From Auanema rhodensis (lineage: Eukaryota; Animalia; Nematoda): a stretch of DNA of 64,000 bases. This document shows, piece by piece, positions 1 through 42,597 of the stretch; position 1 is the first letter of the stretch; every line of letters starts with the position of its first letter. The notes beneath the pieces are model-generated. The model was not told the DNA's origin. It did not search any database and saw nothing but the letters and a program-made list of their open reading frames with translations. Location of the stretch: positions 12,772,001-12,836,000 of the forward strand of contig OZ059895.1 of the NCBI GenBank assembly GCA_964057225.1. Direction: 5' to 3'. The translations under genes and the position numbers were made by a program.

Positions 1-3000
1 GTTATTAGTTGATAATACGGGCCTGATTGGCGGCATGTTTACAAATGCTTTCAAAACTTCTTGTTTTGATGGCACCGACATGTTATTTTGAGCGAAAATG
101 GTCGGTGTAAATGCCAACTCGAGCGCTATACTTTCGGTTCGCTCTCGATAACTTCCTTCTCTTGTGAGTATTTTTTCGTCAAATTCTTCTGCTGTTAATC
201 TGTCGCCTATCTGCTCTAACAGTTGCAGGGAAGTGAGGTATTTAACGGCTCCTCTTGTGGTAGCTGCCAGTTCTTTTTGGGCGAAGAATTGAAGCATTGC
301 TTCTTCTGGGTCGTAGAATTCATATATTTTCAAGAATCTTTCTATTGATCTATCCGAAGTAGTGCTTCGTAGAAAGAATTTGAACTGCTCGGGATGTGCT
401 GAGATCCACTTAACGATAGAATATGTTGGATCTATTGTCCGTCTGGCTCGAATTATAGGAATTATTTGTGATATCCCAGGGTTACTCATTACTGGACGTA
501 AAAATGGGTATGGGCATATGTTCAATGTTAAAGTTTCGTAGTCTTCTTGTTCTTTTATCCAGCTTTCGTCCAATTGCAGTGCGCATTGCGCTATAGCCCT
601 TTTTTGACGCTTAGCTGGCAACTTTTTATATTCTCTTTCAATTAAGTTGTGTATATTACTGTCATTTGGATATTTGGGAAAGAGTATATAATTGCCCGTG
701 GTTGATTGAAATATAGGTTGCGAAAAACATGATGTAATCTGTTTTGGAATTTGTTTATTGTCGATAACAAGGGCTGACTGCGTATTGGGAATTAGTATTA
801 TGCTGTCTCCAATGATGGCATCGTATTCACTCATGTCTATGTAGTTGCATCTCTGTTCGTATGATTGGATTTCCCAGATGATCATTGAAGTATTGGATGC
901 GCATTGGCCATGATGTGCAAGACAGCCTTCCGTATTGAGTAATAGATTTGTCAATATGGTGTCGTCTGGCATCCTGGTCATAACGCCTCTTTCCAAAACC
1001 AGTCGTTCTTTTTCTTCGCATTGTTCGTAATTGAATGAGCGCGCTGGAGAGAATGTAGGTTCGGTTGTCGCGTATGTCAAGCTATCCAATTTAATCAGGT
1101 CTTCTGATTTCCATTTACGGTCGCGGACAGCCAGTCTACATTCGTTTTCTGTTGTTGGCTCAATTCGAACAATGGAGGAGTTATGATCTCTTAAAAATAG
1201 CAAATCCCTGATGCATATTTTATGTATTTCTTTTGAACATCGCCATGAATCCCATTCGTGAGCCGTCTGGTTTCTTGTATACAGATGTATGTTTGTGCGG
1301 AGGACATGTTTGGTAGGTGGTATTGTGCATTTCCTCGGGGGTGGGGGTATAAGGAGGGCTCCACCTGTAGCTTTAGTGCACATCTGATAAGCATCAGTTA
1401 TAGTGATTAGTGATAAGATCACTGATAAAGCTACTGCTAGTGTTAAGGGGGATATCAAGGTCAAATTATTGACTCTTGAGCCTCTTCCTCTACCTCTATT
1501 ATTGTTGTTTCCCCTGAAGGGATTATTACCGCGTTGACGGTTATCACTCTCCTGATTACGTGATAAGTTGTTATTTCTTTGATACCAATTTGGATTTGAG
1601 AAATTTCTACCGCGATTACCAAGATTGCGGTTTCTTGCGAAAGAATTTTGCAAATTTTGTGGTTTCTGATTATTTGATGAATTTTGATAACTTTGATAAT
1701 TTTGATAATTTTGGTAGTTTCTATTGTTAAATGATTGATAGCCTCTACCGATTCCTCGCCTTCCGGTGTCGCGCCTGGGAGGGAATGTTCTATCGATTGC
1801 GTTAACCAGTAGCGCCTGAGGGTCGGATACTTGGTTAGCAATTGATTCTTCCCATCTGGCATTATCAATTGCCTCGGCAAACGTTTTTGGTTTAGCTCTG
1901 ATTACCCCCGGGCGTATTGTGTTTTTGAGACCGCGTAGAAAGGTGGATCTAAGAATGTGGTCCTTGTGTGGGTCTGTATGTGAGAAAGCGTTTAAGCTTA
2001 GGCTTCGTAAAGTTTGTGCAAATCCATCTACTGATAGCTCGCCTTGGGTGGAATTCTGTAGCGTTATCAGCGCCGGATCTTGATTATACTCTGGGCATAG
2101 CCTAGAGGTAAGTTCTTCGATGAGAGTATTCCACGAGCCAGATGTCTTGATAGTATCGCTAAGCTGTGTATAAGCTTCTTCAGCTCGTTCGTTTTTGAGA
2201 AGTAATGGTAAGATTGTTAATCTTTCGGGCATAACTAAGCCTAAGGCGTTTGCAAAGGTGTTAAACTTGGCCACGAAGTCTCTAAAGTTGCGACTTCCGT
2301 CGTATATAGGGCAATATGGGGAGCTTAATGCCTGAGCAATGGTAGATTTACCCGCTCCTGGAAGCCGTGATGTTTCGGTCATTTCGGATGAGATGCCCTC
2401 AGGGTATGTGATAGGTGATATTATCACTTCGCTCCCTGTTGGATCTTGATGAGTGTTTTCTATTGCCTTAGGGTTTCTGCTAGAGAAGCCTATTATAGGT
2501 GTAGTTGTTGCGAAACGGGCTCTTGGAACCTGGATGACTTTACCAGATGCCTGAGGCGATGTTCTATCAGTTGATCGTGAGCTAGGGATCGCACTATCTG
2601 ATCTGTTAAGATTAGGATTATGTGAAGAAAACCGGGGTTTTGCTGTTCCGCCGGGTGTTGTTTTATCGCCTGGGGATAAGTTTAAAATCTTTATCAGTCG
2701 ATTTGTTAAAGATCTTTTGTTTTTAAACTTATCAGTTGTTAATGATAAGGGTGAAGCTTCTTGTATGCCTTCGAGGCTGGCTTCTGCTGACAAAGTTTCT
2801 GTTGCGCGCTTACTGGGTGTTTTTGTCTTCCGCTTATTAGGGATATTCTTTTTGATCTTATCAGTGATTTTTGATAAGGTTGAAGGGTTGTCACTAAGTT
2901 GGGTGGGTTCTAAAGTTAGCGAATGTGGTTGATTAATAGGCGTGGAAGACGCTTGCGGGCTTTGTGTTAACCCGAGGGATGGGGAAGGTGCGTTATCAGT

Positions 3001-3573
3001 GATAACTGATAAGTTCGACGCGTTTGGGTCTGGGGTTACCGGTGAGGCAGATGCGGTTGTCGGCTTTTTCTTTTGAATTTTTCGCAAATTTTTATTAGTA
3101 TCAACTGAGCGTACCTTGGGATTTGTAGTTGGAGTTTGAGTGCTGTCGTCGGCTATGATGAAGTCCGGGTCTTCGTCGGTGTCGTCAGAAGGTGAATATG
3201 TACCTTCTCGGGGAGTATAGAACTTGTCGACTTGCGGCTTCGGCTTCTCGTCTGGTTGGTGCGGTTCTTCTATTTGAACACTGAGAAGTCGGGTGCGGCT
3301 TCGGGTACGACTTGCGACAGTAGCGTCACTGTTGATATCGGACGGGTAAAGGGCTGGGAAAGCCGATGAGAATCTTTTGGCCACCTTTGTAGGACTTTTG
3401 GTTTGGAAAAACCGAGAATGGTGAGCTACGTGTGGGATGTTGATGTAAGGTGCGTAAGATTCTTTTAGATGTGTGTTGGGAGAGAGAGAGATTCGGGAGC
3501 AATAGGATAGTCGTGCTTCGCTGGGCGATGCGGAGGGTAAATGAGAGGGAGTTTTCCAAATCGTGGCCACCAA
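1..3573 (-). CDS. Gag-Env(-Pol) polyprotein of family B copy 1, open to the window edge
   Basis: Reads through both positions that are broken in copy 2 (…FAEAIDNARWEES… near 1860 and …YETLTLN… near 530). It is absent from the ORF track, consistent with no stop before position 1. The start codon is uncertain (TTG at 3573). Confidence 0.85.
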   Translation of the reverse strand, partial: MVATIWKTPSHLPSASPSEARLSYCSRISLSPNTHLKESYAPYINIPHVAHHSRFFQTKSPTKVAKRFSSAFPALYPSDINSDATVASRTRSRTRLLSVQIEEPHQPDEKPKPQVDKFYTPREGTYSPSDDTDEDPDFIIADDSTQTPTTNPKVRSVDTNKNLRKIQKKKPTTASASPVTPDPNASNLSVITDNAPSPSLGLTQSPQASSTPINQPHSLTLEPTQLSDNPSTLSKITDKIKKNIPNKRKTKTPSKRATETLSAEASLEGIQEASPLSLTTDKFKNKRSLTNRLIKILNLSPGDKTTPGGTAKPRFSSHNPNLNRSDSAIPSSRSTDRTSPQASGKVIQVPRARFATTTPIIGFSSRNPKAIENTHQDPTGSEVIISPITYPEGISSEMTETSRLPGAGKSTIAQALSSPYCPIYDGSRNFRDFVAKFNTFANALGLVMPERLTILPLLLKNERAEEAYTQLSDTIKTSGSWNTLIEELTSRLCPEYNQDPALITLQNSTQGELSVDGFAQTLRSLSLNAFSHTDPHKDHILRSTFLRGLKNTIRPGVIRAKPKTFAEAIDNARWEESIANQVSDPQALLVNAIDRTFPPRRDTGRRGIGRGYQSFNNRNYQNYQNYQSYQNSSNNQKPQNLQNSFARNRNLGNRGRNFSNPNWYQRNNNLSRNQESDNRQRGNNPFRGNNNNRGRGRGSRVNNLTLISPLTLAVALSVILSLITITDAYQMCTKATGGALLIPPPPRKCTIPPTKHVLRTNIHLYTRNQTAHEWDSWRCSKEIHKICIRDLLFLRDHNSSIVRIEPTTENECRLAVRDRKWKSEDLIKLDSLTYATTEPTFSPARSFNYEQCEEKERLVLERGVMTRMPDDTILTNLLLNTEGCLAHHGQCASNTSMIIWEIQSYEQRCNYIDMSEYDAIIGDSIILIPNTQSALVIDNKQIPKQITSCFSQPIFQSTTGNYILFPKYPNDSNIHNLIEREYKKLPAKRQKRAIAQCALQLDESWIKEQEDYETLTLNICPYPFLRPVMSNPGISQIIPIIRARRTIDPTYSIVKWISAHPEQFKFFLRSTTSDRSIERFLKIYEFYDPEEAMLQFFAQKELAATTRGAVKYLTSLQLLEQIGDRLTAEEFDEKILTREGSYRERTESIALELAFTPTIFAQNNMSVPSKQEVLKAFVNMPPIRPVLSTNN

Positions 3574-3800
3574 TCTGACTCCGCCTATCTACCGTAAGCT
3601 TATTATAGTTAATGATGTTTATCTCTTCTCAAAAACTATTTTTATCCGCTCTTGCACTTTCCTCTAATTTTGTTTTCTTACTGCTCTAGAATCTTCAAAA
3701 AAAACTTTATTCATGTCGTCCCCTTTGTACTTTTGCGGCCTTTGGACATTTATTTTAAGGTTAGAAACAAACGAAAAGAAAAGAAAGAAAGAAAAAAAAA

Positions 3801-4345
3801 ATGGATTTCCAACGTTATAATCCCACTGGCATGACTTATGTCCTGTGGAAATTATACGAATCCATCGTTGAATACGATGGAGAAGGAGTTTTGGCTTATA
3901 GGCCACATCCTGATATAATTTTGATGGTTTGTGTATCTCCATTTTATGTTTGATTATTTGATTACTTTAGTTTATCGAAGATCTCCAAATGTATTATTTG
4001 GGGCAGGGCCATATAAACTTTGCCACCTTCGTAGATGTAGCTCCCGAAGTGGAGCTTGTTGGTCGAAGGTGCTTAGTTGATCTATGCGCTCATGTATATA
4101 ATGATAGGGCCGGTTTATTAACCGCACGTCCTTGGGCCTGGTACCAGGAAAAGAGTCACTTTTATTATTATTTATTATATAGATTATTGTTTAAAATCTA
4201 TATTGTTTATGATGACTCATTATTTGGTTTGGAACTTAGGGTTTCGCGAGGTTTAGAATATAGTGAAGATTTAAATGCGAGCGAAACTCCTATGTTTCTT
4301 GCCTCTGAGTTTCGAACTCGGTTGCAAATCAAATATGGGTATTGA
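3801..4345 (+). CDS. Putative spliced antisense accessory gene in the family B leader (exons 3801-3926 and 3971-4345, ~166 aa, unknown function)
   Basis: ATG follows an A-run; a 44-nt GT…ctttAG intron (3927-3970) joins MDFQRY…IILM in frame to FIEDLQMYYLGQG…; AATAAA at 4349-4354 just after the stop. Confidence 0.55.
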
Positions 4346-5325
4346 CTGAATAAAGTTTGTACTCTGTGTTTTTATTTTTGTGCACTTTGCTCTGTTTTCG
4401 TCAAGAAAACGGACTTATGTTTTCAATCTTTTCCTCATTCCTTTTCCCTTAAATAGCATGTTTTGCTCAAAATGTTTTCGACATTGTGCATGCTAATGAG
4501 GTTTGAGGAGAGTTATTGAAAAGGCTGTCCTTTTTCTTGATCAAAATAAGCAAAAGTGCGTTTTCCTAAGCGAATTTCTTTTTGAAAATGAGAAAAATAC
4601 GTCTATTTTTAAACATTTTCCATTTACTTAGGATTACTGTAGGAGATAAGGGGTATCTTATGAGTTGAAACAACGAAATGATTTGAGGAAGGTGACATAA
4701 TCTACGGGGATAAAATCCGTAGCAGTTATGCTTCCGCCAACTTGACCTGACTGTCAAATAAGAGCTGAGAAGTCTTAATGCAGATTTACCAGGCTTTTTC
4801 GGACTAGTGTGGTCTCTTTTTATATTCAATTTATGTAACCGTTTTTGGTTTCCCGCAAAATAATGTGTAAAATGATCTTTTACGTCTGAATATAATAATT
4901 TTTCAAAATTCTAGTCCTGACCACAAAATATACAAACTATAATCAATTGCGCGCGTCTTATAACTTTTTGTTCCAATAATCAAACTTCTCTATGCCCAAA
5001 AAAAAATGTGAACAATTATAATTTCTCGTTTGGCGAAATTGTCCTCTAATTCAATCCAAACGTCCTCAAAATGGCATGAGAAGCGGTACAAGATACGATA
5101 TAGAAAAGGGTGGACATTCAGACGGTTTTAAATTGAGGACGGCGGGCAAAAATTTTTATTGGTCCTATCTCGCATTTAAGCGAGATCCCTTGTATCTGTA
5201 CCTTAAAACAAATTGGCGCCTTCATTTTGTTGTTTCAAGTGGAGGAATTTATAATTTAGAATGCAAAAATGGACTTTTACAATAAAAAAAAAATTTTTTT
5301 TTTTTTTTTCAAAAGATGAGTTCGA

Positions 5326-5338
5326 GGTGGAACCTCCA
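5326..5338 (-). promoter_or_regulatory. Primer-binding site (tRNA-Gln), family B copy 1
   Basis: Minus strand TGGAGGTTCCACC directly abuts the LTR; complementary to the 3' end of eukaryotic tRNA-Gln (…GGTGGAACCTCCA). Confidence 0.85.
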
Positions 5339-5683
5339 CGTTCCCTTATGCTCCTGCGTCGATAATATAAACCATTGTAGTTTATACTATGACGCGCATA
5401 GTATTCCTTGGTGTAGCGGTGAGGAATAAAGAGCATAAGGTCAATCATAAGATAAAAGAGAGAAAGATTTATTAGCATGAAACTACAACAATAATATACA
5501 AAGATAAAGATACAATACAATAATATAAATATAAGTATAAAGACTAAACTACAAGCCGTCCATGAGCTTGCTAAGAGGCGAACTCCCGACCAAGGGAACG
5601 AGGGAAGGCGGAGCCATTCCTCGGTCCTCTGGTCGTCTGGCTCTAACCCTTCAGCTACATATATGGGGAGTCCGAATGGAACG
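5339..5683 (-). repeat. Family B 5' LTR (345 bp), copy 1
   Basis: About 9 differences from the LTRs at 35670 and 47412; terminal inverted repeat CGTTCC…GGAACG. Confidence 0.95.
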
Positions 5684-12595: not shown

Positions 12596-13012
12596 TGTTA
12601 CATACATATCTCAAAGGAAAGCAGCTGACCATGGCAGCTGCTATTATTAAACTAATGCAGATAGTTTTTAAGCAATTCTGAGAATATTCTAGATGCACTT
12701 TTTATAAGCTTTGTAACAATTTGTGTAAACTGAGTAGGAGTTGTATGGATATATAAACCTGAGTCCTCAAGACTCAGGCATCTCATTATCTTATTATCTT
12801 ACTTTCTCTTTATCTTCTTTATATTCTCTTTCTTAACTCTAGCTTAAATCTTTGTATAATTATATTATAATGCGAACAATAAACCTTTATATATTTGATT
12901 TCTTGTTTCTTATTTCACCTTACATTACACACTTATATTTAAAATCATACTCATCTTCTCATAGTCTGTTTGGATCTCTCAACTTGGAACCATTGAGAAT
13001 CTAAATGGAACG
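12596..13012 (+). repeat. Family A 5' LTR (417 bp)
   Basis: TGTTAC…GGAACG; TATATAAA at 12750-12757; AATAAA at 12878-12883; repeated at 24511 and 33114. Confidence 0.97.
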
Positions 13013-13030
13013 TGGAGGTTCCACCGAGAT
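13013..13030 (+). promoter_or_regulatory. Primer-binding site (tRNA-Gln), family A
   Basis: TGGAGGTTCCACCGAGAT, an 18-nt complement of the tRNA-Gln 3' end as I recall it (ATCTCGGTGGAACCTCCA), immediately after the LTR. Confidence 0.9.
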
Positions 13031-14211
13031 CCTTCCTTTTGGACAGGATCTCGTAAAGGAACTCAAGCGCTACCGTCTACATCTCTTATTCAATTAAAAA
13101 TCTTATCTCTCTCTTAAAGTTAGCTTATAATATTTTCTTAAAAACTCTAAAAACTTTTCTATTAAAAATTATATCCAAAAACTCTTTACAAAAACTCAGT
13201 TTTCCATTCATTATATTCTCATAAATCATTTTCAATTATTCATAAGAGTACTTATATCATTTATCATTCTCTCTATCCAAAATCCTATATACGAAAATTA
13301 TTCAAATTCAATAATTAACTTTTCTAAGAATTATAAGTTTATTTTCACATTTTTTGAACAAAAATAGTTAAGTTCTTTATAAAATTAATTTAGAATTAAG
13401 AAATAAAAAAGAATATTACCTCTCAATCTTAATCATCTTATCATATTATCTGAATCTTCATCTTATCATACTATCTTAATCATCCTATCATACCATATTT
13501 TCATTATTTTCTTTATGTTCGTTTATAAAACTATTATTCTTATGCTACTACACTGTATTCTCATAAACCCACCCCTTCCCCCCCCCCGTAATTTCATAAA
13601 CAAGAAATCCCGTGTTAAACACGACAGTAAAAATATTTATTAGGCGCAGCGTATCCAAATTCCGATTACCTTAGCACCTGAAAATACGAAAAATAATTAA
13701 ATTAATCAATCAGTTTTAACTCATACGCAAAAACCATCCCCCCTCGTTAAGAATAATGCCAGACACTCAAGAGACTCGAGCGGAGGCCGACACTCAGGAT
13801 AAGACGTACGCCCCATGAAATAATTAGAGAATTTTTGAATTGAAATCTGCCCCACATTGATATAAATAATAAGAGTGGTCTCGCCATCATAGAGTCAGGG
13901 AGCAGGATGCAGAAGGCAGCTGACATACCTGTGACTCAGATAGGTTAATGAGGTCTGGGAAAATGAAATGATTGCGAAAATTCTATTTTGTATCCTTGTC
14001 CCAAAAGACTGGCGAACTATTAACTTTCATTTCATGCCTTTTTCACAATATAGAACTTGTCCCTTCGAAAAGGCACACTAGTTTCAAACCTGTGTTAGAC
14101 CCGGACGAGCTATATTGGTAAAGAGATTACTTGCAAGACTAGCTACCTTCATAAGAATCGCGCACACAAACCCAACATTATTCTTTACGTTTTTCAATAT
14201 ATAAAATTATT

Positions 14212-17200
14212 TTGGCACACGTTGGATATAACAAATTTCCTTACAGGATACCAACGATGCTGCCCAATACTGGTCCAAAACCTCCGCTGGACCCTGCTGC
14301 CACTTCAAATATTATAAGAAGAAAAAGACAACCGCCCGCAACATATTCTCCCCCCTCTGCAAAACAAGCGAAGTTAAGCATTAAAACAAAGTCAATGGTA
14401 ATACATACCCCAAGACATCGCGGCATTCAAAAACAATTCACCAATCCCAAATCACATGAAAAAACGAAGAAACAAAAAACAGACATAGTCGAAAGAAACA
14501 CCTTAGAAAAGAAAATTATCCCAAACATTAAACCTATTCCTAAAAACATAGCAAGCAAAGGGAACCCTCAAAACCCCCCAACCAACACCATACCAAATAC
14601 AATCAACCCAATCAATCCTTTAATAGCCACCCCTAGAAGAAGCAATACACCAACCACACAAAAATCACCTACGCCCGCACTTTCTTCAACCACACCCGCA
14701 GTAAGCTCATCCCCACCTCTACGAAACTCACCTTCATCCATTGATCATTCTACATCCGGGCATTCTCTATCTCCGTCTCTTCCATCGCAAACTAATCAAG
14801 CAAATACTTTTGTTGCAGAAAACAAGAGAATTAACCCAAGAATGGACCCAATGGACGAAGGCGCACCACTTACGCACACCTCGGGAAGGGCACCTGTTCC
14901 AACACCTACAATCATCCCTCAACCAGCAGCGATTCCGTCCGCCATACGCGATATAAAAGCTCCACGCTACGATGGAAAAACACCATTCAACCGCTATCTA
15001 CTATACCTAGATGAACACTTCAACGCTACAAGAACAACTATGCCCGAACGTCTTCAAAGCATACAATTATTGCTAGAAGATGATCGAGCAAGAGAAGCGT
15101 ACAGAAAACTCACAACCGAAGATAAGCGACTTGGATGGGACCATGTCAAGAAGCGACTCTCAGAAATGATCACACCGAAAAAACAGAGAGAACGAGCAAT
15201 GCACCGCCTACATGGCTTGAAACAGTTACCAACGGAATCGGTACAAAGCTTTGCAACAAGATGTTCTAACGAAGCCTACTCAGCTATGGACATGAACAAC
15301 GAAAGTGAGCTTAACATGCTCCGATCCACCTTCACCTGGGGACTAAGACCCGAAATAAGCGAACATGTTAGCCGTCTAGACCCACCAAACTTTGAGGAAG
15401 CTTACGAAATGGCCTTACGAGAAGAACTCTTTATACAAAATAGACCACCATCGTTCGTCAACAATATGGAGAAGTCGTTCAACAACCTCAACATTCGAGA
15501 CTCAAAGGACAACAATCAATACCAGAGAAACGAATCTAAGGAGTTCAAAGGAACCAAACCGATGTATAATGGCAATGGCAAACCACACAACCGATATCCG
15601 GACAGATACAACAACCAATATCGGCCTCATCAACACCAATACAGGAACCATAACTCACGATTCTCTCAAAATAAGGGATCAAGACAAAACTACTTCGACA
15701 GATCACGGAACAGAAGCCAGGAAAGACCATACTATCGAAACCGCGACCAAAACTATAGCGGACACAACAACCGGCGACAATCAAACAATCACGAACAATA
15801 CCCCTCTCAATACAATCGAAGCCAATACAACAATTATAGAAGTCGCCCGCGCAGCACCTCCAATGGACCGGAACGGTACAGAGAACGCACACAGAGCCCA
15901 GGAGTACGTTTTCAAGTCAACAACGTCACGGAAAACGAAGTACCGAACAACAAAAGAAAATCAACACCATTCCTACCCCTCTTTATCACAATTATCGCAC
16001 TCATTATAAATACATGCAGTGCAGAAACAACGTACCAGTTATGCACAGGAAACAGAGGAGGAATATATGTTGAGCCGCCATCGCCAACAGCTTGCCGATC
16101 CATCGCACCAACTAATAACCATATCCAGAAGACTACAGCAGAATTGTTCATCCAAAACCTACAACCAAAAGAATGGGAAGCATGGAAATGTGCAATTGAA
16201 ACTTACCAACTCTGCATTCACGACGTTTTCTTCATCAGAGAAACTAATGTCTCACTAGCAAAAGTTTCACCAACAACACTGCAAGAATGTTCGTCAGCTA
16301 TTAAAGAAAGAATATTCAACGGTACCAACCTTCAAAGAGAAGCACCAGGACTCTATGGAACTCCATTCCCACATACAACTATTACTAATGGTATATGGAA
16401 ACAGGAATGCGAACAACGTACCAGATTCATAGCTGAACGAGGACACATGACCAGCCTACAAGACAATACAGTACTCTCAGATATATTCATAAACGACAAC
16501 GGATGCACCAGTGACAAAGGACAATGCCTAACCAACAACGCTCTCATCATATGGACCCCACCATCAGAAAAACATAGTTGCTCGTACACTTCATTAGGCT
16601 CTCACGAAGTTTTTATATCAGAAGACACCATATTGATTCCCGGAATTCAAAGTGCTTTTATTCTAAACAATAAAACACCGGAAAAAGAAGCCTCCTCATG
16701 CTTACAAAAAGATATATTTACTACAAATAGTGGAACTCTAATCTCCTTCAACTCAACCTCAAGCTTAGGACGATCAAGAAGACACGCAATCACGGAATAC
16801 CCTAAAGGATTCTTGACAGTTCATCAATACCCCTCGCTAAGATATTCAGCCAGCAAAACCGGAACTATTCTACTATATACAACCTATATTCAACGGAAAA
16901 GACTTGACATCCATTACAATCTCAATAACATAACAAATATGTTACCTAAGTATATCGCAATCTTCAAATACCTAGGTATAAATTTTGATGTTATCAAAAA
17001 TCGTCTTATATGGCACAAATATGAAGACGTCAACATAGCCATTCTACACGCCCTAGGAGAAGCAGAAATAAGAGAAGCAACAAAAATCGCGATCGATAAT
17101 CTATCGTATAAGGAACTTACGCATAAACTTAGCAAACGGATCACAATTAAGGATTTTAAGAAGATACTACCAACCAAAACAGGAGACTACTATGAAATCG

Positions 17201-20200
17201 CGAAAGAAATTGCTTACTCACTTGCGGAAATACCTACTACGTTAGCTACAGGAGAAACAACACCATCTTTAGAAGAATACTTATATCAACTCATGCCACC
17301 AAGAAAACCAAGACTCACCAAGACACGAAACGATTTAGAACTGTACGAACAACTAGCACAAGCAAAAATTATCCTGAACGCAATAAATAATCCGAAGAAG
17401 CTACATTCAAAAGAAGAATACGAAGCAGAAATGAAGAAATGGATCAAATATGAAAAAGAACTGAACTTACCACCATTACAACTGCCAAACTACACAGTTA
17501 TCTTCGATGGCGACGATATATTCTACGGCTTCCGGAAAAGAAATCCTACAAATTATAGCATTACACAAGAGGATAGTGAAAAATTTTATAATCATTATCT
17601 ACCCCTTATCAGTACTCCCGGAACACGACCTTTTGCAACCACAATTAGAAGCACTTCGACCCCCCTACAAACTACTACTACAACCACTACCACGACCCCT
17701 AAGCCTACAACCATAAGGAACGTCATCACTTCGACAATCACACCCAAAACACATATATCCACAACAACTAGACCCAAACCAACAATACCCACGTCTTCAT
17801 CAACTACTACTACTACTACCACTACTACTACTACTACTTCTACTACTGCTAGACCCAGATCAACAACAACCACAACACCTACAACAACCACAACTATATT
17901 CACCACTCATCGACCAACACAATCATTCTCCACCCCCCAATCTACATTCAATATTACTACAAACCCAATCACAATCACCTCAAGCCAGGAATACAATAGG
18001 AAAGAATCACTCACCAAGTCACCGCCTCCAAGAACTACAAAAAGATCTATCACTACCACTCGCAGCACACCTGAAGAAATATCATCACATATTGGTAAGA
18101 AAGCTCACGTAGACTACCTTAAAGCTAAGAACGATATCGTCCAAAAATGGAATGAACATCTTCATCAACAAGAAACGCAATCTCATCTACAATATGCCAC
18201 TACCAATCTGGAAGATGATATCATACGTACGTTCACAACAAACAGAAACAACATATGCCACGTACAAAATAAACAACTACTTACCTGGTGGGCTATTCTT
18301 CAAATAAATCCTACTATAGGGATGCGTACAATGCTACGACGACAGGATATATCTGCAAGATTCATAAATGATAAACTAATTTATGTAATGCCATGCACAC
18401 CAATTCAAATTACAAAAACATACCGCGATCACAAAGTCAACAGCACGTGTTTTCTGGAAACCCCAGTCGAAACGGAACATCACGGCCAACTGTTCATCCT
18501 ACCAGGTACAAGAGACCTCACACCGATGGCACATGCCATACCATGCGGATTCACAATCAAGGATCCCTGGAAAGAAAACGATCAATGGACTAATAATAAC
18601 CAATCAATAAATGTAACATCACCAGCATACATCGACGAGTTAGGATCAATCAACCTAGAACATATCAAGTTTAATGGAAGCAACATTTTCAACAACCTAA
18701 CAGAATCAACGTTTCCTATGGCACTAGCAATATCATATGGATCCAGCTTAGCAACGCTACAGGCTACTTTACCAGGAAGAATAAAACCTGTAATCAAACA
18801 AAGATTAATTCCTAACATGAACCCTGTTACCCTAACAGCAGGAGCAGCCAGCAGCTTACTACTCAGCTACGAACATACAAAAGAAGCTATAACTTGGAAA
18901 ATGTTTGACTTTCTGTCACCAATATGGGAAAAGATTCAAACCTGGACACTACGCGTACTTGCTATCATTGGATCAATCATCATAACAATTGGCATAATCA
19001 CACTCGCCACCTGGATAATAAAAATATACGCATGTAGTTCAAGGATACCCATCAACAATGTCAAATGGGAAGCAGAATACTTACAACCACTATCAACTGA
19101 GAACACAAGAACAGAAACATCTCATCCTTCTCCGTCCGCTCCATACGTCGACAACCATCACAACAGCTGTCAACTCACATTGTATGATCCTTCAGCACCA
19201 ATTCCTGAACACATTTATGAAGCTTATTTCCCTACAAGCATGAAGAAAGAAAACATAAACTACATAGGAGGATCACAATTACCGTTTGTCCCGATTTCAA
19301 TCCACAATCACATCTTTAAGGCACTATGGGACACGGGAGCATCAGCATCATACATGCGAGAATCCACCTTCAAACAACTGCCCGCTGCAACGATGGTACT
19401 AAAACAAACAACAGCGATAGTCGCGAATAAATCTAAATTCTCATTTATGGGATACACAAGGATCCTCATAACAATAGGAACAACAGAAACAGAACACAAA
19501 TTTTATGTAGCAGAAGATAACTACTGTCCAGCACCAGTGTTACTTGGAATAGACTTCATGGAAGCATTACATCAACAAGGAATTTACACCTCACTTCGAC
19601 CGCTGGATAAAACAATTGTTATCGGCACAACACATGTTCCACTAGCACGAGAAACATCTCCGTGGGAACACCAGACCACGAAAGCATATGTGGTTAGCTT
19701 AGAAAACAAAACGCTAAGACCAGGAGAAACAAGAACGCTCACGCTAGAAGTACACGATCCAGAAAGCTATGAACAGGCGTTTCTAGATTGTAAGAAACCA
19801 GGCAACAAACTCTCTTTCACGCCTACTATATTTACGCCAACTGGATACGGAGTACAAATTTACGCGACGAACATATGCAAACAGCCACTCGAAATTCAAA
19901 TGAATCAAGAAATAGGGATAGCAGAAGCGATACCAAAGGACAACCAAGAAAAATACGAAGGACAATACATACCTCCAGAAGCTCGATGGGAAGAACAACT
20001 GCCATATTTCCCAGACAATTTCATCAATGAGCTTGACCTCTCAGAAGCCTGCTTCTCGCAAATCGAACAACAGCAACTGAAAGAAATAATTTTACTACAT
20101 AAACAAGCGTTTCTCAACGAAGATAGAAATATCGGACTCTTCCTAGGACCAATTGAACACTCCATTCCAATCATGCCAGGAAAAACACCATCATTCAAAA

Positions 20201-23200
20201 TTACTTATCGTATACCACTCTCCCAACAAGAAGAAGTGGAGAAACAAATAGAAGAAATGCTACAACAAAGAATCATTGAACCATCAAACTCAATGACAAC
20301 TAGTCCAGTAATTTTGGTGAAGAAGAAGGACAAAACTTACAGATTTGTAACGGACTTTCGAGCTCTGAATGCAATCACCCAGAAACAAGTATACGTCATA
20401 TCAAACATACAGGACATCCTAGACTTGGCCGCTGGAGCAAGGATCTTCAGCAACTTTGATTTAGTATCTGGATTTTTCCAAATACCTCTTAAGAAAGAAG
20501 ATCGTCATCTTACAGCTTTCACAACAACAAGTGGAACTTATCAATATTGTCGAATGCCGATGGGATTATGTGGATCACCCCATACTTTTCAAAACGCAGT
20601 ACGATACCTGCAATCAATGGTTAAATGCAAGCTATTCGTATATCTAGATGATTTACTGTTAATCTCTGAATCTACGACAGCACATTTAAAAGATATTGAA
20701 GAAGTTTTGGAAGCAGTAACTCAAATAGGATTCAAAATAAAACTGAAGAAATGCGCATTCGCAAGAAAGGAAGTAAAATTTCTAGGATACATAGTTGGAC
20801 AAGAAGGAATTAAACCGGACCCACATAAAATTAAGGCAATACAAGATTATCCCCAACCAAAATCAACAACAGGAGTAAGAGCTTTCATGGGAGTAGTAAA
20901 CTACTTCCGAAGGTTCATAAAGAACGCTGCAGGAATAGCAACACCACTCTACAACCTCACTCGGAAAGACACTCCGTTCAAATGGACAGAAGAAGAAGAA
21001 ATTGCTTTTAATACTTTGAAGAAAACATTGACTCAAGCACCTGTGTTACAAGCACCAATCCCGAAACGACCATATGTTATTGAAAGTGATGGAAGTATGA
21101 TAGCAGTTGGCGCTGTACTACTTCAAGCGAAAGACGATCAAGAACCATTACACCCCATAGCTTTTGCTAGTCGGAAACTCAACAAAGCTGAAAGGAATTA
21201 TCCACCAATAGAAGTAGAAGCATTAGCTCTTACATTCGCCGTTAAACAATTTCGCACCTACATACTAGGAACAGCAACCAAAATTATCACGGATCATAGA
21301 CCACTTACTAGTTTAATGACTAGAAAAGATTTAATAGGTCGTTTAGCAAAATTTCAAATTGTTTTACAAGAATACGATATTGAAATTATCTACAGACCAG
21401 GAAAATTAAATAGTGTATGTGACGCATTATCACGATATTTTGAAGATGAAATCAACGAAGCAAAACCACCAGCAAAGAAGAAAAACGAAAGAAAAACGAC
21501 GGAAGATACTATTCATCAGATAAACACCTTCACGATAGCAGATATTCGATCAGTTCAGAATCAATCAAATTGGATAAAAGAAACTATGGATAAAATAAAG
21601 AACAATACAGCTGGACGACAACTGACGGACAGATATATTGTGTACAACGATGTACTATACTCAAAACCAAAAAGAAGCCTACAAGTACCACGAACAATTT
21701 TACCACGAGAAGAACACATAATTAATCCAATTATGAAGAAATTTCATGAAGATCCGACACTCGGAGCTCATCTAGGAATAAACAAAACAATGGACTCAAT
21801 ATCAAGACGATTTACATGGACTGGAATGCAAGAAGACATTACAAACTACATCAACAGATGTCTTGCTTGTGCGAAAAGAAAGAACAACCCTCACGAAGCA
21901 ACGGTGGAACCAATGAAAAATTTTCCAACATCAACAAAACCATGGCAAAGAATACACATGGATATACTCGGACCATTACCTAGGACAGAACAAGAAAACA
22001 GATATGTTCTTTCAATTCAAGATTCTTTTTCAAAATGGATAATCGCAATTCCGCTAATCAGACAAACATCAGAAGAAATTATATCAGCTATCGAAAAATA
22101 TCTCTTTTATGTTTTTGGACCACCTGTTACTATCATCACAGACAATGGATCTAATTTTATTTCAAACGATTTCACTACTATGTGCAGTAATTTTGGAACT
22201 ACACACCACACTACTATGCCGTATTACAAAAACGCTAACGGACAAGTAGAAAGATTGCATCGGACGATCGAAGAAGCATTAACAGCCTACGTTAATGACG
22301 AACAAAACGATTGGGATAAGATACTTCCGAAGATTATTTTTACACTCAACAGATTACCAAACGCCACCACTAAAACATCACCATACGAATGTTTGTTTGG
22401 ACAAGTAGCACGTCTACCCATTGACAAAAACTTGGAAACACCGGAAGAACAAAATATCACGGATCAGCTCAAAAACTTAAGAGATATTCAAGAAAAAGTC
22501 AAGGAAAAGATTGCCACCAACGAAGAAAGAATGAAGCAGAAATACGATCAAGCACATAGGACAAAAGAAAGAATATTGGATATAGGAGATCGAGTATTTG
22601 TACAAAGAGCGAACCCAAGCAACAAATTACAAATACGAAGAGATGGACCTTACCGGATAGTGACAATTGAAGGAAACAACATCAGCATAACGGACCAAGA
22701 TGGAAATATTATAAAAGCTCACAAAAATAACATACGTTATTTTCCACCAGACGATAATCTTATATCAACAAGAAATAATGAAGAAGAGGAAGAAGAAGAC
22801 CAAGACATAGCAAACGAAGAAGAAGAAGAAGAAGAAGCAAGTTGGAATAATCTGGATGAATGGGAACAAACCAATAATACGGAAAATAACAACAACTGTT
22901 ACCCAACAGGCAGTCCAGATACTCTCGCGCAACTGTTACCTATCACAGGGAATAACAGAGGAATAAACGAAGAAGAAATTGAACATAATTCAGAAACACC
23001 TGACGACCTTGCTACAGCAAGAAGAATAACAAATTCTAATATACAATTAGAAAATGAATCAACAACAATCGACAGAATTCAAGAGGACCTCAGACAGCTG
23101 ACACCTTTCTCTCAAGAAGAAGGTCCTAATCAAAACGATATAGAAAATAATAACGCAAAAACATACGAAAAGCTACGAGATCAATTCAAGAATGAAAACA

Positions 23201-23457
23201 GAAAGGAGCTATTTGAGGACAGAAACAAAAACTCACCAGCAATCAAAAATTGGAACACTACACTTGCCGCAGCACTAGGAATAGGAAATGAAAACTCACG
23301 CCCGTATCATGTTAAACTACAACCCAAAAGAAAAACACAAGACGAAGAAATCAGAAGTAATGGAGAATTGGAACTACATGGAAAAGCGGATCAAAGCAAA
23401 AAGCAGCAGAATAAATCTCCAACGCAAAACAAAGGAGAACAAGTACGAAACTTTTAA
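14212..23457 (+). CDS. Gag-Env-Pol polyprotein (capsid, gB-like class III envelope, aspartic protease, RT, RNase H, integrase)
   Basis: Capsid-like region ~14960-15435; signal peptide ~15967-16023; furin RSRR 16771-16782; gB-like block ~18181-18470; TM ~18950-19030; LWDTGAS ~19324; YLDD 20641; RNase H ESDGS ~21082; IN HHCC/DDE ~21745-22260; GPY ~22645. First ATG at 14257. Confidence 0.95.
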   Translation: MAHVGYNKFPYRIPTMLPNTGPKPPLDPAATSNIIRRKRQPPATYSPPSAKQAKLSIKTKSMVIHTPRHRGIQKQFTNPKSHEKTKKQKTDIVERNTLEKKIIPNIKPIPKNIASKGNPQNPPTNTIPNTINPINPLIATPRRSNTPTTQKSPTPALSSTTPAVSSSPPLRNSPSSIDHSTSGHSLSPSLPSQTNQANTFVAENKRINPRMDPMDEGAPLTHTSGRAPVPTPTIIPQPAAIPSAIRDIKAPRYDGKTPFNRYLLYLDEHFNATRTTMPERLQSIQLLLEDDRAREAYRKLTTEDKRLGWDHVKKRLSEMITPKKQRERAMHRLHGLKQLPTESVQSFATRCSNEAYSAMDMNNESELNMLRSTFTWGLRPEISEHVSRLDPPNFEEAYEMALREELFIQNRPPSFVNNMEKSFNNLNIRDSKDNNQYQRNESKEFKGTKPMYNGNGKPHNRYPDRYNNQYRPHQHQYRNHNSRFSQNKGSRQNYFDRSRNRSQERPYYRNRDQNYSGHNNRRQSNNHEQYPSQYNRSQYNNYRSRPRSTSNGPERYRERTQSPGVRFQVNNVTENEVPNNKRKSTPFLPLFITIIALIINTCSAETTYQLCTGNRGGIYVEPPSPTACRSIAPTNNHIQKTTAELFIQNLQPKEWEAWKCAIETYQLCIHDVFFIRETNVSLAKVSPTTLQECSSAIKERIFNGTNLQREAPGLYGTPFPHTTITNGIWKQECEQRTRFIAERGHMTSLQDNTVLSDIFINDNGCTSDKGQCLTNNALIIWTPPSEKHSCSYTSLGSHEVFISEDTILIPGIQSAFILNNKTPEKEASSCLQKDIFTTNSGTLISFNSTSSLGRSRRHAITEYPKGFLTVHQYPSLRYSASKTGTILLYTTYIQRKRLDIHYNLNNITNMLPKYIAIFKYLGINFDVIKNRLIWHKYEDVNIAILHALGEAEIREATKIAIDNLSYKELTHKLSKRITIKDFKKILPTKTGDYYEIAKEIAYSLAEIPTTLATGETTPSLEEYLYQLMPPRKPRLTKTRNDLELYEQLAQAKIILNAINNPKKLHSKEEYEAEMKKWIKYEKELNLPPLQLPNYTVIFDGDDIFYGFRKRNPTNYSITQEDSEKFYNHYLPLISTPGTRPFATTIRSTSTPLQTTTTTTTTTPKPTTIRNVITSTITPKTHISTTTRPKPTIPTSSSTTTTTTTTTTTTSTTARPRSTTTTTPTTTTTIFTTHRPTQSFSTPQSTFNITTNPITITSSQEYNRKESLTKSPPPRTTKRSITTTRSTPEEISSHIGKKAHVDYLKAKNDIVQKWNEHLHQQETQSHLQYATTNLEDDIIRTFTTNRNNICHVQNKQLLTWWAILQINPTIGMRTMLRRQDISARFINDKLIYVMPCTPIQITKTYRDHKVNSTCFLETPVETEHHGQLFILPGTRDLTPMAHAIPCGFTIKDPWKENDQWTNNNQSINVTSPAYIDELGSINLEHIKFNGSNIFNNLTESTFPMALAISYGSSLATLQATLPGRIKPVIKQRLIPNMNPVTLTAGAASSLLLSYEHTKEAITWKMFDFLSPIWEKIQTWTLRVLAIIGSIIITIGIITLATWIIKIYACSSRIPINNVKWEAEYLQPLSTENTRTETSHPSPSAPYVDNHHNSCQLTLYDPSAPIPEHIYEAYFPTSMKKENINYIGGSQLPFVPISIHNHIFKALWDTGASASYMRESTFKQLPAATMVLKQTTAIVANKSKFSFMGYTRILITIGTTETEHKFYVAEDNYCPAPVLLGIDFMEALHQQGIYTSLRPLDKTIVIGTTHVPLARETSPWEHQTTKAYVVSLENKTLRPGETRTLTLEVHDPESYEQAFLDCKKPGNKLSFTPTIFTPTGYGVQIYATNICKQPLEIQMNQEIGIAEAIPKDNQEKYEGQYIPPEARWEEQLPYFPDNFINELDLSEACFSQIEQQQLKEIILLHKQAFLNEDRNIGLFLGPIEHSIPIMPGKTPSFKITYRIPLSQQEEVEKQIEEMLQQRIIEPSNSMTTSPVILVKKKDKTYRFVTDFRALNAITQKQVYVISNIQDILDLAAGARIFSNFDLVSGFFQIPLKKEDRHLTAFTTTSGTYQYCRMPMGLCGSPHTFQNAVRYLQSMVKCKLFVYLDDLLLISESTTAHLKDIEEVLEAVTQIGFKIKLKKCAFARKEVKFLGYIVGQEGIKPDPHKIKAIQDYPQPKSTTGVRAFMGVVNYFRRFIKNAAGIATPLYNLTRKDTPFKWTEEEEIAFNTLKKTLTQAPVLQAPIPKRPYVIESDGSMIAVGAVLLQAKDDQEPLHPIAFASRKLNKAERNYPPIEVEALALTFAVKQFRTYILGTATKIITDHRPLTSLMTRKDLIGRLAKFQIVLQEYDIEIIYRPGKLNSVCDALSRYFEDEINEAKPPAKKKNERKTTEDTIHQINTFTIADIRSVQNQSNWIKETMDKIKNNTAGRQLTDRYIVYNDVLYSKPKRSLQVPRTILPREEHIINPIMKKFHEDPTLGAHLGINKTMDSISRRFTWTGMQEDITNYINRCLACAKRKNNPHEATVEPMKNFPTSTKPWQRIHMDILGPLPRTEQENRYVLSIQDSFSKWIIAIPLIRQTSEEIISAIEKYLFYVFGPPVTIITDNGSNFISNDFTTMCSNFGTTHHTTMPYYKNANGQVERLHRTIEEALTAYVNDEQNDWDKILPKIIFTLNRLPNATTKTSPYECLFGQVARLPIDKNLETPEEQNITDQLKNLRDIQEKVKEKIATNEERMKQKYDQAHRTKERILDIGDRVFVQRANPSNKLQIRRDGPYRIVTIEGNNISITDQDGNIIKAHKNNIRYFPPDDNLISTRNNEEEEEEDQDIANEEEEEEEASWNNLDEWEQTNNTENNNNCYPTGSPDTLAQLLPITGNNRGINEEEIEHNSETPDDLATARRITNSNIQLENESTTIDRIQEDLRQLTPFSQEEGPNQNDIENNNAKTYEKLRDQFKNENRKELFEDRNKNSPAIKNWNTTLAAALGIGNENSRPYHVKLQPKRKTQDEEIRSNGELELHGKADQSKKQQNKSPTQNKGEQVRNF
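15967..19030 (+). other. Envelope glycoprotein domain embedded in the family A polyprotein
   Basis: Hydrophobic signal peptide, Cys-rich ectodomain with N-x-S/T sequons, furin site, Thr-rich mucin-like segment, LQY…C-x-x-QN…W…NP…AR…C-x-P…C-F-x-x-x-PV motif series, TM helix. Confidence 0.85.
17665..17905 (+). repeat. ACT/ACA/ACC codon repeats encoding a poly-Thr mucin-like stretch
   Basis: (act)n and (aca)n runs; the protein reads TTTTTTTTTTTT. Confidence 0.85.
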
Positions 23458-23660
23458 TTAACTAACAAAAATCGTAGAATTGTAAAAATAATTTTTCTTT
23501 CTTTCGTATAGTACATTAAACATAAGACATAGATCAAAAACCACCGAAATTCTAATTTCTATCCTTTAATTTTAACAAATTGTAACAATCACTGAAAAAC
23601 AAACTATATAAAGAGAAAATTTTGATAGAGAAAAATTCAATAACACTTTTCTTACTCAAA

Positions 23661-24305
23661 ATGACCTCCTCTCTCGCCAACGTCACACTCTCTACATTCC
23701 TCGCAACTCCAACACCACTGGTCCCTCTAGCGACCACTATTGAACAAGAATGGATAGAGGTAGAAAACCTTCGTGAAGGTCTTCTACCTATCAACTGCAT
23801 GAAGCCCAACTTAGGACCAATAATAAGCCTCCAAACGAGCAAATTGGAAAAGAAGACACAGCACATCCTATTTATGATGGAACTATTGGAGGAGAAAACC
23901 AAAAACTATAAGGAAAACGATCTGAAGGAGCTTCGCCAGCATCAAAAGAAATGGACAGAAGGATGTTCTCTCAGCCAGAAAGAGAACAGAATCCGACACA
24001 TAATGCTGGGACAACCCGCCAGAACGCAGACCACAGCTGACATCTACAAAGCAATGCCGACGTGGACAACACAGATGACACAACAAGCTGTAGGAAATAG
24101 CGGAACCGAAGAAGAAGCATCGTGGATAGAGATAGGGCAAGACCTATCAGTAGTAATCGAAAAACTACTGACAAAAAGGACTACCAACACGTCCGCATCA
24201 AAAAGTAAGGCAAAAGCAGTTAGCCAAACCATCAGAACAATGGAGCTGCTTGGACTAGCATCAATGACGGAAATGATCCAGGAAATTGACCAACTGGCGG
24301 ATTAA
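23661..24305 (+). CDS. Extra ORF 3' of pol in family A (~214 aa from ATG, unknown function, helical and charged)
   Basis: aaaATG at 23661; A-rich codon usage like the main ORF; lies between the pol stop and the 3' LTR; no obvious signal peptide or TM. Confidence 0.7.
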   Translation: MTSSLANVTLSTFLATPTPLVPLATTIEQEWIEVENLREGLLPINCMKPNLGPIISLQTSKLEKKTQHILFMMELLEEKTKNYKENDLKELRQHQKKWTEGCSLSQKENRIRHIMLGQPARTQTTADIYKAMPTWTTQMTQQAVGNSGTEEEASWIEIGQDLSVVIEKLLTKRTTNTSASKSKAKAVSQTIRTMELLGLASMTEMIQEIDQLAD

Positions 24306-24504
24306 AGAAGAGAGGAAAGGTTTAAATCATTTATAAAATTCTATCTCTTAAAATTTTTCTCTTTATCAATAGTTTGTTGAAAAAAAAAAAAAAAAATTTT
24401 TTGCTTTATCTCATGCCATTTTATTTTTTTTATTTTAATTTTTATTTTTCTCTCTTAATTATTATTTGCATATAACAGCTGAGGTCAGCTGACTTGTATC
24501 CGTT

Positions 24505-24510
24505 GGGGCA
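24505..24510 (+). promoter_or_regulatory. Minimal polypurine-tract position of family A (GGGGCA)
   Basis: Abuts the 3' LTR; family B has the same GGGCA ending; unusually short. Confidence 0.5.
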
Positions 24511-24927
24511 TGTTACATACATATCTCAAAGGAAAGCAGCTGACCATGGCAGCTGCTATTATTAAACTAATGCAGATAGTTTTTAAGCAATTCTGAGAAT
24601 ATTCTAGATGCACTTTTTATAAGCTTTGTAACAATTTGTGTAAACTGAGTAGGAGTTGTATGGATATATAAACCTGAGTCCTCAAGACTCAGGCATCTCA
24701 TTATCTTATTATCTTACTTTCTCTTTATCTTCTTTATATTCTCTTTCTTAACTCTAGCTTAAATCTTTGTATAATTATATTATAATGCGAACAATAAACC
24801 TTTATATATTTGATTTCTTGTTTCTTATTTCACCTTACATTACACACTTATATTTAAAATCATACTCATCTTCTCATAGTCTGTTTGGATCTCTCAACTT
24901 GGAACCATTGAGAATCTAAATGGAACG
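24511..24927 (+). repeat. Family A 3' LTR (417 bp)
   Basis: Identical by eye to 12596-13012. Confidence 0.97.
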
Positions 24928-30900: not shown

Positions 30901-33900
30901 AACACTATACAACTGTGAAACCTTTTTTAATTTATTGTATTTGGAGCTCATAAGATTTGATATCATCGAGGAATTTAGATGTAACGTAGAAAATTACATA
31001 ACTAACATGAAATTGGAAAAAAAACAATAACGAGGATAAGTATGTAAATCATTGAATATCAGGTATTTTCGCTTACGACCATACCACGTTGAAAGTACGC
31101 CATCCCGTCCGATCTGGCAAGTCAAGCAACGTTGGGCCCGGTTAGTACTTGGATCGGAGACGGCTTGGGAATCCCGGGTGCCGTAAGCTTTTCAAATTTT
31201 TTTAACGATCATACCACGTTGAAAGTACGCCATGCAGCTGATTTTCAATTTTATCTCTTCAGTAACAAATGTTTTTAATTTTCCAGCAGTTTTACTTAGA
31301 TAGCTCAACCCAAGGCATCAAAATATCTTCAATCTTATTTCTATATTACAGTTATAAACCAGTAGTTTATGAACCTTCATCTTAACTTTACTGTTTCTAT
31401 CTATTTCCTATTGAAACAAACATTGTTTTAACACTATACAACTGTGAAACCTTTTTTAATTTATTGTATTTGGAGCTCATAAGATTTGATATCATCGAGG
31501 AATTTAGATGTAACGTAGAAAATTACATAACTAACATGAAATTGGAAAAAAAACAATAACGAGGATAAGTATGTAAATCATTGAATATCAGATTTTTTCG
31601 CTTACGACCATACCACGTTGAAAGTACGCCATCCCGTCCGATCTGGCAAGTCAAGCAACGTTGGGCCCGGTTAGTACTTGGATCGGAGACGGCTTGGGAA
31701 TCCCGGGTGCCGTAAGCTTTTCAAATTTTTTTAACGATCATACCACGTTGAAAGTACGCCATGCAGCTGATTTTCAATTTTATCTCTTCAGTAACAAATG
31801 TTTTTAATTTTCCAGCAGTTTTACTTAGATAGCTCAACCCAAGGCATCAAAATATCTTCAATCTTATTTCTATATTACAGTTATAAACCAGTAGTTTATG
31901 AACCTTCATCTTAACTTTACTGTTTCTATCTATTTCCTATTGAAACAAACATTGTTTTAACACTATACAACTGTGAAACCTTTTTTAATTTATTGTATTT
32001 GGAGCTCATAAGATTTGATATCATCGAGGAATTTAGATGTAACGTAGAAAATTACATAACTAACATGAAATTGGAAAAAAAACAATAACGAGGATAAGTA
32101 TGTAAATCATTGAATATCAGGTATTTTCGCTTACGACCATACCACGTTGAAAGTACGCCATCCCGTCCGATCTGGCAAGTCAAGCAACGTTGGGCCCGGT
32201 TAGTACTTGGATCGGAGACGGCTTGGGAATCCCGGGTGCCGTAAGCTTTTCAAATTTTTTTAACGATCATACCACGTTGAAAGTACGCCATGCAGCTGAT
32301 TTTCAATTTTATCTCTTCAGTAACAAATGTTTTTAATTTTCCAGCAGTTTTACTTAGATAGCTCAACCCAAGGCATCAAAATATCTTCAATCTTATTTCT
32401 ATATTACAGTTATAAACCAGTAGTTTATGAACCTTCATCTTAACTTTACTGTTTCTATCTATTTCCTATTGAAACAAACATTGTTTTAACACTATACAAC
32501 TGTGAAACCTTTTTTAATTTATTGTATTTGGAGCTCATAAGATTTGATATCATCGAGGAATTTAGATGTAACGTAGAAAATTACATAACTAACATGAAAT
32601 TGGAAAAAAAACAATAACGAGGATAAGTATGTAAATCATTGAATATCAGGTATTTTCGCTTACGACCATACCACGTTGAAAGTACGCCATCCCGTCCGAT
32701 CTGGCAAGTCAAGCAACGTTGGGCCCGGTTAGTACTTGGATCGGAGACGGCTTGGGAATCCCGGGTGCCGTAAGCTTTTCAAATTTTTTTAACGATCATA
32801 CCACGTTGAAAGTACGCCATGCAGCTGATTTTCAATTTTATCTCTTCAGTAACAAATGTTTTTAATTTTCCAGCAGTTTTACTTAGATAGCTCAACCCAA
32901 GGCATCAAAATATCTTCAATCTTATTTCTATATTACAGTTATAAACCAGTAGTTTATGAACCTTCATCTTAACTTTACTGTTTCTATCTATTTCCTATTG
33001 AAACAAACATTGTTTTAACACTATACAACTGTGAAACCTTTTTTAATTTATTGTATTTGGAGCTCATAAGATTTGATATCATCGAGGAATTTAGATGTAA
33101 CGTAGAAAATTACTGTTACATACATATCTCAAAGGAAAGCAGCTGACCATGGCAGCTGCTATTATTAAACTAATGCAGATAGTTTTTAAGCAATTCTGAG
33201 AATATTCTAGATGCACTTTTTATAAGCTTTGTAACAATTTGTGTAAACTGAGTAGGAGTTGTATGGATATATAAACCTGAGTCCTCAAGACTCAGGCATC
33301 TCATTATCTCCTTATCTTACTTTCTCTTTATCTTCTTTATATTCTCTTTCTTAACTCTAGCTTTAATCTTTGTATAATTATATTATAATGCGAACAATAA
33401 ACCTTTATATATTTCATCTCTTGTTTCTTATTTCACCTTACATTACACACGTATATTTAAAATCATACTCATCGTCTCATAATCTGTTTGGATATCTCAA
33501 CTTGGAACCATTGAGAATCTAAATGGAACGTTACATAACTAACATGAAATTGGAAAAAAAACAATAACGAGGATAAGTATGTAAATCATTGAATATCAGA
33601 TTTTTTCGCTTACGACCATACCACGTTGAAAGTACGCCATCCCGTCCGATCTGGCAAGTCAAGCAACGTTGGGCCCGGTTAGTACTTGGATCGGAGACGG
33701 CTTGGGAATCCCGGGTGCCGTAAGCTTTTCAAATTTTTTTAACGATCATACCACGTTGAAAGTACGCCATGCAGCTGATTTTCAATTTTATCTCTTCAGT
33801 AACAAATGTTTTTAATTTTCCAGCAGTTTTACTTAGATAGCTCAACCCAAGGCATCAAAATATCTTCAATCTTATTTCTATATTACAGTTATAAACCAGT

Positions 33901-35669: not shown

Positions 35670-36013
35670 CGTTCCGTTATGCTCCTGCGTCGATAATATA
35701 AACCATTGTAGTTTATACCATGACGCGAATAGTATTCCTTGGTGTAGCGGTAGGAATACAGAGCATAAGGTCAATCATAAGATAAAAGAGAGAAAGATTT
35801 ATTGGCATGAAACTACAACAATAATATACAAAGATAAAGATACAATACAATAAGATAAATATGAGTATAAAGACTAAACTACAAGCCGTCCATCAGCTTG
35901 CTAAGAGGCGAACTCCCGACCAAGGGAACGAGGGAAGGCGGAGCCATTCCTCGGTCCTCTGGTCGTCTGGCTCTAACCCTTCAGCTACATATATGGGGAG
36001 TCCGAATGGAACG
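35670..36013 (-). repeat. Family B 3' LTR (344 bp)
   Basis: Direct repeat of 47412-47755; CGTTCC…GGAACG termini. Confidence 0.96.
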
Positions 36014-36024
36014 TGCCCTTTTTC
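36014..36024 (-). promoter_or_regulatory. Polypurine tract of family B
   Basis: Minus strand GAAAAAGGGCA immediately before the 3' LTR. Confidence 0.75.
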
Positions 36025-42594: not shown

Positions 42595-42597
42595 TGT

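Follow-up and report, generated by a model that had tools for sequence, protein, structure and literature searches.

Is the envelope-like region of a retroelement lodged among the 5S rRNA genes of the nematode Auanema rhodensis a class III fusion protein of the herpesvirus glycoprotein B (gB) type, and by what route did the element come to carry it? The region lies in a stretch of 64,000 nucleotides (nt) of contig OZ059895.1 (positions 12,772,001 to 12,836,000 of the forward strand, assembly GCA_964057225.1; hereafter the window), within element A, a Ty3/gypsy element with long terminal repeats (LTRs). The window also holds element B, of a second family, element C, a copy of family B, and a solo LTR of family A. 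From sequence and modeled structure, we put at roughly 85% the probability that the region forms the trimer-helix core in an Env of class III (gB/Monjiviricetes-type) whose gene shares a single frame with the flanking gag and pol of recently inserted Ty3/gypsy elements, and that this Env is likely a fusion protein carrying particles between cells. The frame of A, its parts, and the Env of B are the following:

14155 to 23457, + strand: open frame gag-env-protease-reverse transcriptase (RT)-RNase H-integrase, 3100 codons from stop to stop, first Met at 14257
15961 to 16029, + strand: hydrophobic, signal-like stretch at the Gag/Env boundary (residues 603-625; hydropathy peak)
16033 to 16749, + strand: fusion domain (I) and PH-like domain (II) of Env, with eight conserved Cys
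16771 to 16782, + strand: furin-type motif at the domain II end, RSRR here and RQKR in both B and C
16807 to 17583, + strand: inserted helical domain, 24% identical in B
17641 to 18093, + strand: Thr/Ser/Pro-rich, mucin-like stretch, predicted to be disordered
18091 to 18624, + strand: central helix of Env domain III, followed by domain IV; stretch of the initial annotation and predicted trimer interface
18934 to 19038, + strand: Env transmembrane segment (residues 1594-1628; hydropathy peak), in frame with the downstream protease
19279 to 22227, + strand: Pol (aspartic protease, RT, RNase H, and integrase; gypsy-type Pfam set)
40600 to 43461, − strand: Env of B, 30% identical to A Env, with the same layout including the insert

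The initial annotation had proposed a gB-type class III envelope at 18181-18600 from short motifs. All motifs that it quoted were present, on the + strand in A (HLQYATT at 18184, NICHVQN at 18250, and STCFLETPV at 18442, within the frame listed above) and on the − strand in B (HLQYATT at 41424, SICEIQN at 41358, TCYLETPV at 41163, and IDC at 41070; open frame 36769-42597), and the claimed order (LQ[YF], C-x-x-Q, W, P, A[RK], C) was the same in aligned gB chains. The span is part of a genuine + strand env stretch, but covers domains III-IV only; the A Env ectodomain extends over 16024-18939 (972 residues).

Used alone, the A stretch matched herpesvirus gB in 11 of 12 PDB hits with a modest best E of 0.0019, and ESM Atlas leads for env scored under 0.9, as might be the case if an amphipathic helix and a beta region rich in cysteine had come to look like gB by chance. 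Against this stand the profile results: with A and B combined, all 43 matches were gB (best E = 5.8e-6), the family profile reached gB at E = 3e-15, and the N-terminal half gave a separate profile match to fusion domains. Fold matches also extended over domains I-IV. Chance likeness was rejected on the family profile and the AlphaFold structural matches, and we regard it as scarcely credible. The Pfam family Monjiviricetes_fusion (PF24664) was matched by the C-terminal half at 46.9 bits in A and 65.7 bits in B (gathering cut-off, 27), and Glycoprotein_B (PF00606) at 27.5 bits in A (E = 2.5e-6) and 40.9 bits in B (E = 2.2e-10). Pfam and a viral structure library placed glycoproteins of negative-strand RNA viruses ahead of herpesvirus gB, which bears out the earlier caution that the donor could be of chuvirus type.

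The top ten structural matches of the AlphaFold model were gB, a rhabdovirus G, and thogotovirus Gp, and model residues 33-247 aligned to gB, Chandipura G, and Thogoto Gp. The model contained an elongated fusion domain (domain I) and a PH-like domain II, followed by a long central helix in domain III and a beta-rich domain IV built with the N-terminus, as in class III proteins; a signal sequence and a C-terminal transmembrane anchor were called from hydropathy peaks alone. A trimer formed through the central helix scored 0.61, compared with 0.00 for the best control, at a predicted local distance difference test (pLDDT) of approximately 47 and with a possible contribution from the model's memory of gB. 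Pfam, the family profile, the AlphaFold fold matches, and the trimer model agree on a gB-type class III envelope. Profile and structural searches and trimer modeling were among the checks that the initial annotation had proposed, and the lack of significant class III matches that it had named as contrary evidence was not what we found.

Several observations weigh against this reading. Glycoprotein_B scores were under the 43-bit gathering cut-off in both A and B; Env would work like gB but is not filed as gB. Domains I-II alone matched no viral Pfam family. Whole-chain template modeling scores were 0.10-0.32, with mostly large root-mean-square deviations, a result of differences in the insert and in how the domains are oriented, and domain V and the stem were poorly modeled (pLDDT < 50 at model residues 874-959). 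Element B is broken: an indel of 1 nt falls near 43933, and a stop codon lies in frame at 42598-42600. The selection test described below had only four env differences available, and the evidence as a whole consists of sequence and models.

Element A is real, young, and constrained. Contigs of four sequencing runs from four studies spanned 17900-22700 with no indels, and the passage from env into pol was bridged by single contigs in two of the four. Synonymous changes made up 32 of the 35 differences in A (33% expected) and all four of those in the env ectodomain, so that the open frame is under purifying selection. Of the 67 relatives whose sequence extends upstream, 52 had a hydrophobic stretch ahead of env comparable to that at the Gag/Env boundary. 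Predicted fusion loops lie near 16213-16245 and 16381-16410, where model and alignment place aromatic-rich columns (residues 692-693 and 744-748) at predicted hairpin tips.

From this layout we infer a possible sequence of events. One polyprotein would be made; the hydrophobic stretch after Gag would thread Env into the endoplasmic reticulum (ER) and be cut, freeing Gag, and the transmembrane segment would stop transfer, leaving Pol in the cytosol for release by the protease. Env would then trimerize via the domain III helix and be cut at the furin-type site after domain II. The two hydrophobic loops of domain I would enter the target membrane before Env folds back, with the inserted helical and Thr-rich parts held outside, in the loop that corresponds to the gB cleavage site. 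Many gB proteins are cleaved in the loop between domains II and III.

A class III fold might also be retained without fusion, with env acting as a membrane anchor that organizes Gag and Pol at the ER for transposition within the cell. Such a role fits the expression of the frame: no slippery heptamer or other frameshift signal was found at either env border, and Gag, Env, and Pol would therefore be produced at equal levels in the absence of RNA splicing. It also fits an insert of 479 residues that could hinder refolding, and no function has been tested for these elements in the accessible sections of PMC13524379. An anchor would have no need of the loop aromatics, all 14 cysteines, and the furin-type site, which are kept across both families (30% identical) and in the relatives; we consider this role very unlikely, and a fusion protein remains the preferred reading.

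A large insert is a less ordinary feature of this Env. The stretch between domains II and III was 479 residues long in A (helical domain plus Thr-rich stretch), compared with a median of 52 in the 91 of 150 relatives with both halves, a set that includes one artefactual negative value; only one of the 91 had a longer stretch (517). Long Thr-rich linkers were common in gypsy-type relatives, whereas the 260-residue helical part matched only five of the 150, four of them from Auanema. The helical domain was modeled with moderate confidence and had no Pfam family match and no usable ESM Atlas match; fold searches, which used the whole model, barely probed it. A basic motif stands just ahead of domain III in both families (18031 in A, 41562 in B), and one may speculate that the insert is cut out at the basic motifs. 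The helical and Thr-rich parts are likely an attachment domain and a glycan shield. No partners equivalent to gH, gL, or gD are encoded by the element. Entry by gB-type retroelement envelopes without partner glycoproteins is left open in the available text of PMC13524379, and the inserted domain is a concrete candidate for attachment.

A full HMMER search returned 380 env relatives; word-seeded protein searches were empty, and uninformative given that number. Named relatives came from Caenorhabditis, Auanema, Acrobeloides, and Aphelenchus; these names, together with short introns in one run, point to a likely rhabditid nematode host. When 19 long relatives were scanned, 14 had a gypsy env-pol arrangement, four a BEL pol-env arrangement, and one lacked a pol match. 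Three gag-env-pol polyproteins among the relatives (P0023, P0034, and P0019) contained two aspartic protease domains, and another relative, P0047, contained an RRM domain. An env tree was built by a quick method from 39 rows, namely the labeled relatives with both env halves (unlabeled rows left out), unrooted and with no viral rows; it replaced an earlier, poorly resolved tree of 117 rows and 144 columns. The 14 BEL rows fell in three groups among the 25 gypsy rows, with three changes of label, at least two of them forced.

The initial annotation had argued that, the Ascaris element Tas being of BEL type and those here of gypsy type, env was captured separately. The gypsy assignment holds: the LTRs, target duplications, primer site, order of protease, RT, RNase H, and integrase, and Pfam pol domains of A and B are those of Ty3/gypsy elements (Metaviridae), and Pfam found no BEL domains in pol. 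The separate capture is not demonstrated, since the same env family occurs in BEL/Pao elements and BEL envs are interleaved with gypsy envs; exchange between retroelements fits this pattern as well as a second viral capture. The data fit either a movement of env between retroelement lineages or more than one capture. A fairly recent capture by this lineage itself, from a herpesvirus or chuvirus-like virus, draws on real homology to gB and to the G proteins of negative-strand viruses, and on the grouping of A, B, and three relatives (two named Caenorhabditis) apart from the other envs (Shimodaira-Hasegawa-like approximate likelihood ratio test, 100). Yet the relatives looked up (16 of 20) were all either proteins of nematodes or hypotheticals without a name, and none was viral; sequence identity was only 8-17% against viral G proteins, BEL and gypsy envs do not separate, and the accessible part of PMC13524379 argues for an ancient origin with rare exchange. 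Such a recent capture is unlikely.

Elements of this kind are already published. The title of Sacco et al. 2022 reportedly speaks of the capture of an RNA-virus glycoprotein by a metavirus. That work is credited with the first report in PMC13524379 (Chary and Hayashi), the available sections of which describe gB-type env in gypsy elements across animals, with gag-env-pol order in Nematoda, Bryozoa, and Platyhelminthes, and list 36 nematode elements. The elements here have the env of HSV (herpes simplex virus)/gB type between gag and pol that defines these errantiviruses, and share gag-env-pol order, gypsy pol, and class III env with the nematode GAG-ENV-POL errantiviruses (Nematoda C1 group, e.g., Clat_errantivirus_4). 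The eight-cysteine pattern of domains I-II, compared by eye, is also like that of the nematode errantiviruses, and a tRNA-Gln primer site is given for eight of the 36 listed elements, with an identical 12-mer in two. The sections available hold no description of a 479-residue insert with a helical domain, and the main text has nothing on ribosomal DNA, 5S rRNA, target sites, linker, or polyprotein. The nematode env thus adds a member to a published group, and the core claim adds little on its own.

Class III envs are also found in BEL/Pao elements (Ascaris Tas and mosquito chuvirus-like BEL elements), and four of the 19 scanned relatives were of this type. The env family is the same, but BEL elements have env after pol, a BEL-type pol, and short linkers (21-70 residues), in contrast to the gag-env-pol order, gypsy pol, and long insert found here. 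Tas was described as having weak gB similarity, according to the accessible text of PMC9094657. Herpesvirus gB and negative-strand RNA virus G proteins (PF00606 and PF24664; rhabdo-, nyami-, and chu-like) share the five-domain class III layout, the central helix, the cysteine-linked domain IV, and the predicted trimer; identity is only 8-18%, and the Env here is embedded in a retroelement polyprotein and has a large insert between domains II and III.

The array hosting the elements, a 529-base pair (bp) tandem repeat, was identified as 5S rRNA genes (Rfam, 107 bits). Masking of this repeat left four insertions:

5684 to 64000, + strand: 5S rRNA gene array; units mostly 529 bp, some approximately 399 bp; 68 5S starts, 49 full-length
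12596 to 24927, + strand: element A, a Ty3/gypsy LTR element of full length in gag-env-pol order, flanked by the 4-bp target duplication TGGA
12596 to 13012, + strand: A 5′ LTR, 417 bp, identical to the 3′ LTR
13013 to 13025, + strand: A primer-binding site, first 12 bases complementary to the tRNA-Gln 3′ end
24511 to 24927, + strand: A 3′ LTR, ending 57 bp upstream of a 5S rRNA gene
33114 to 33530, + strand: family-A solo LTR flanked by a TTAC target duplication and lying 77 bp upstream of a 5S gene
35670 to 47755, − strand: element B, second gag-env-pol family; 344-bp LTRs with one mismatch between them; TTGG target duplication; lies 58 bp upstream of a 5S gene
1 to 5683, − strand: element C, family-B copy (98.5%) truncated at the start of the window and lying 218 bp upstream of the next 5S gene

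A partial copy of the 5S start, 29 bp long, is also present in each repeat unit; the shorter units (~19) were commoner past 49000. A and B represent different families (RT approximately 72% alike) and have the primer-site 12-mer in common; the tRNA-Gln end matching the A site is listed for two Caenorhabditis gB-type elements in the accessible part of PMC13524379. No tRNA genes were found in the window.

All four insertions were in 5S spacers, with ends at 24927 (A), 47755 (B), 33530 (solo LTR), and 5683 (C). A and B, in opposite orientation, were one base apart in unit coordinates, and three sites fell within 20 bp of the 529-bp unit (P = 0.017 under uniform placement; P = 0.005 when the pair one base apart is included), a statistic based on four sites in this window and on a pattern noticed after the fact. 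The placement hints at targeting of genes transcribed by RNA polymerase III (Pol III). Elements of fungi and amoebae are known to target such genes (PMC5911963, accessible part), and PMC10946416, in its available text, describes transposons as relatively frequent in 5S spacers. Yeast Ty1, Ty3, and Tj1, Dictyostelium DGLT-A and TRE5, and fish Mutsu keep a fixed distance upstream of the Pol III genes at which they insert; for TRE5 this is 37-41 bp upstream of 5S genes (PMC5911963). The LTR examples given there are fungal or amoebal and without env, whereas those here carry env, and Mutsu is a long interspersed nuclear element (PMC10946416), unlike the LTR elements here. We found no report of 5S-targeting LTR elements in nematodes or animals in the literature searched, in which most subscription journals were lacking.

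Tentatively, and with the odds against it, these observations could be combined: env-bearing animal LTR elements would target Pol III genes just upstream of 5S rRNA genes and carry a class III fusogen whose domain II-III loop has acquired an attachment domain together with a mucin-like shield, using one chain for what herpesviruses do with separate receptor-binding proteins. If 5S targeting is real, it would extend Pol III-gene targeting from fungal and amoebal LTR elements to env-carrying animal ones, and would explain persistence in a compact genome.

The A integrase is followed, at 22420-23457, by an acidic, Asn-rich tail of approximately 300 residues, much shorter in B; the tail had no chromodomain match in Pfam and is a candidate for target-site tethering. 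In one run, which we took to be RNA, nine GT-AG joints were found on the minus strand over env and pol of A (18068-20119), eight of them 42-78 nt long and the ninth 588 nt. They were absent from the three DNA runs, and splice-like motifs were much rarer on the A-rich sense strand. The joints suggest an antisense RNA that is spliced and lacks a long reading frame. With the nine introns taken out, the longest open stretch was 88 residues, and on this ground we rejected a coding gene in antisense. Two 209-codon antisense frames over the polyprotein genes (15380-16009, −; 39242-39871, +) are probably shadows. A 239-codon + strand open frame (23586-24305), with no Pfam match, lies between pol and the A 3′ LTR. 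The LTR termini have CG instead of the usual CA, reading TG...CG in A (12596-13012) and CG...CG in B (47412-47755), with a GGAACG end in both families.
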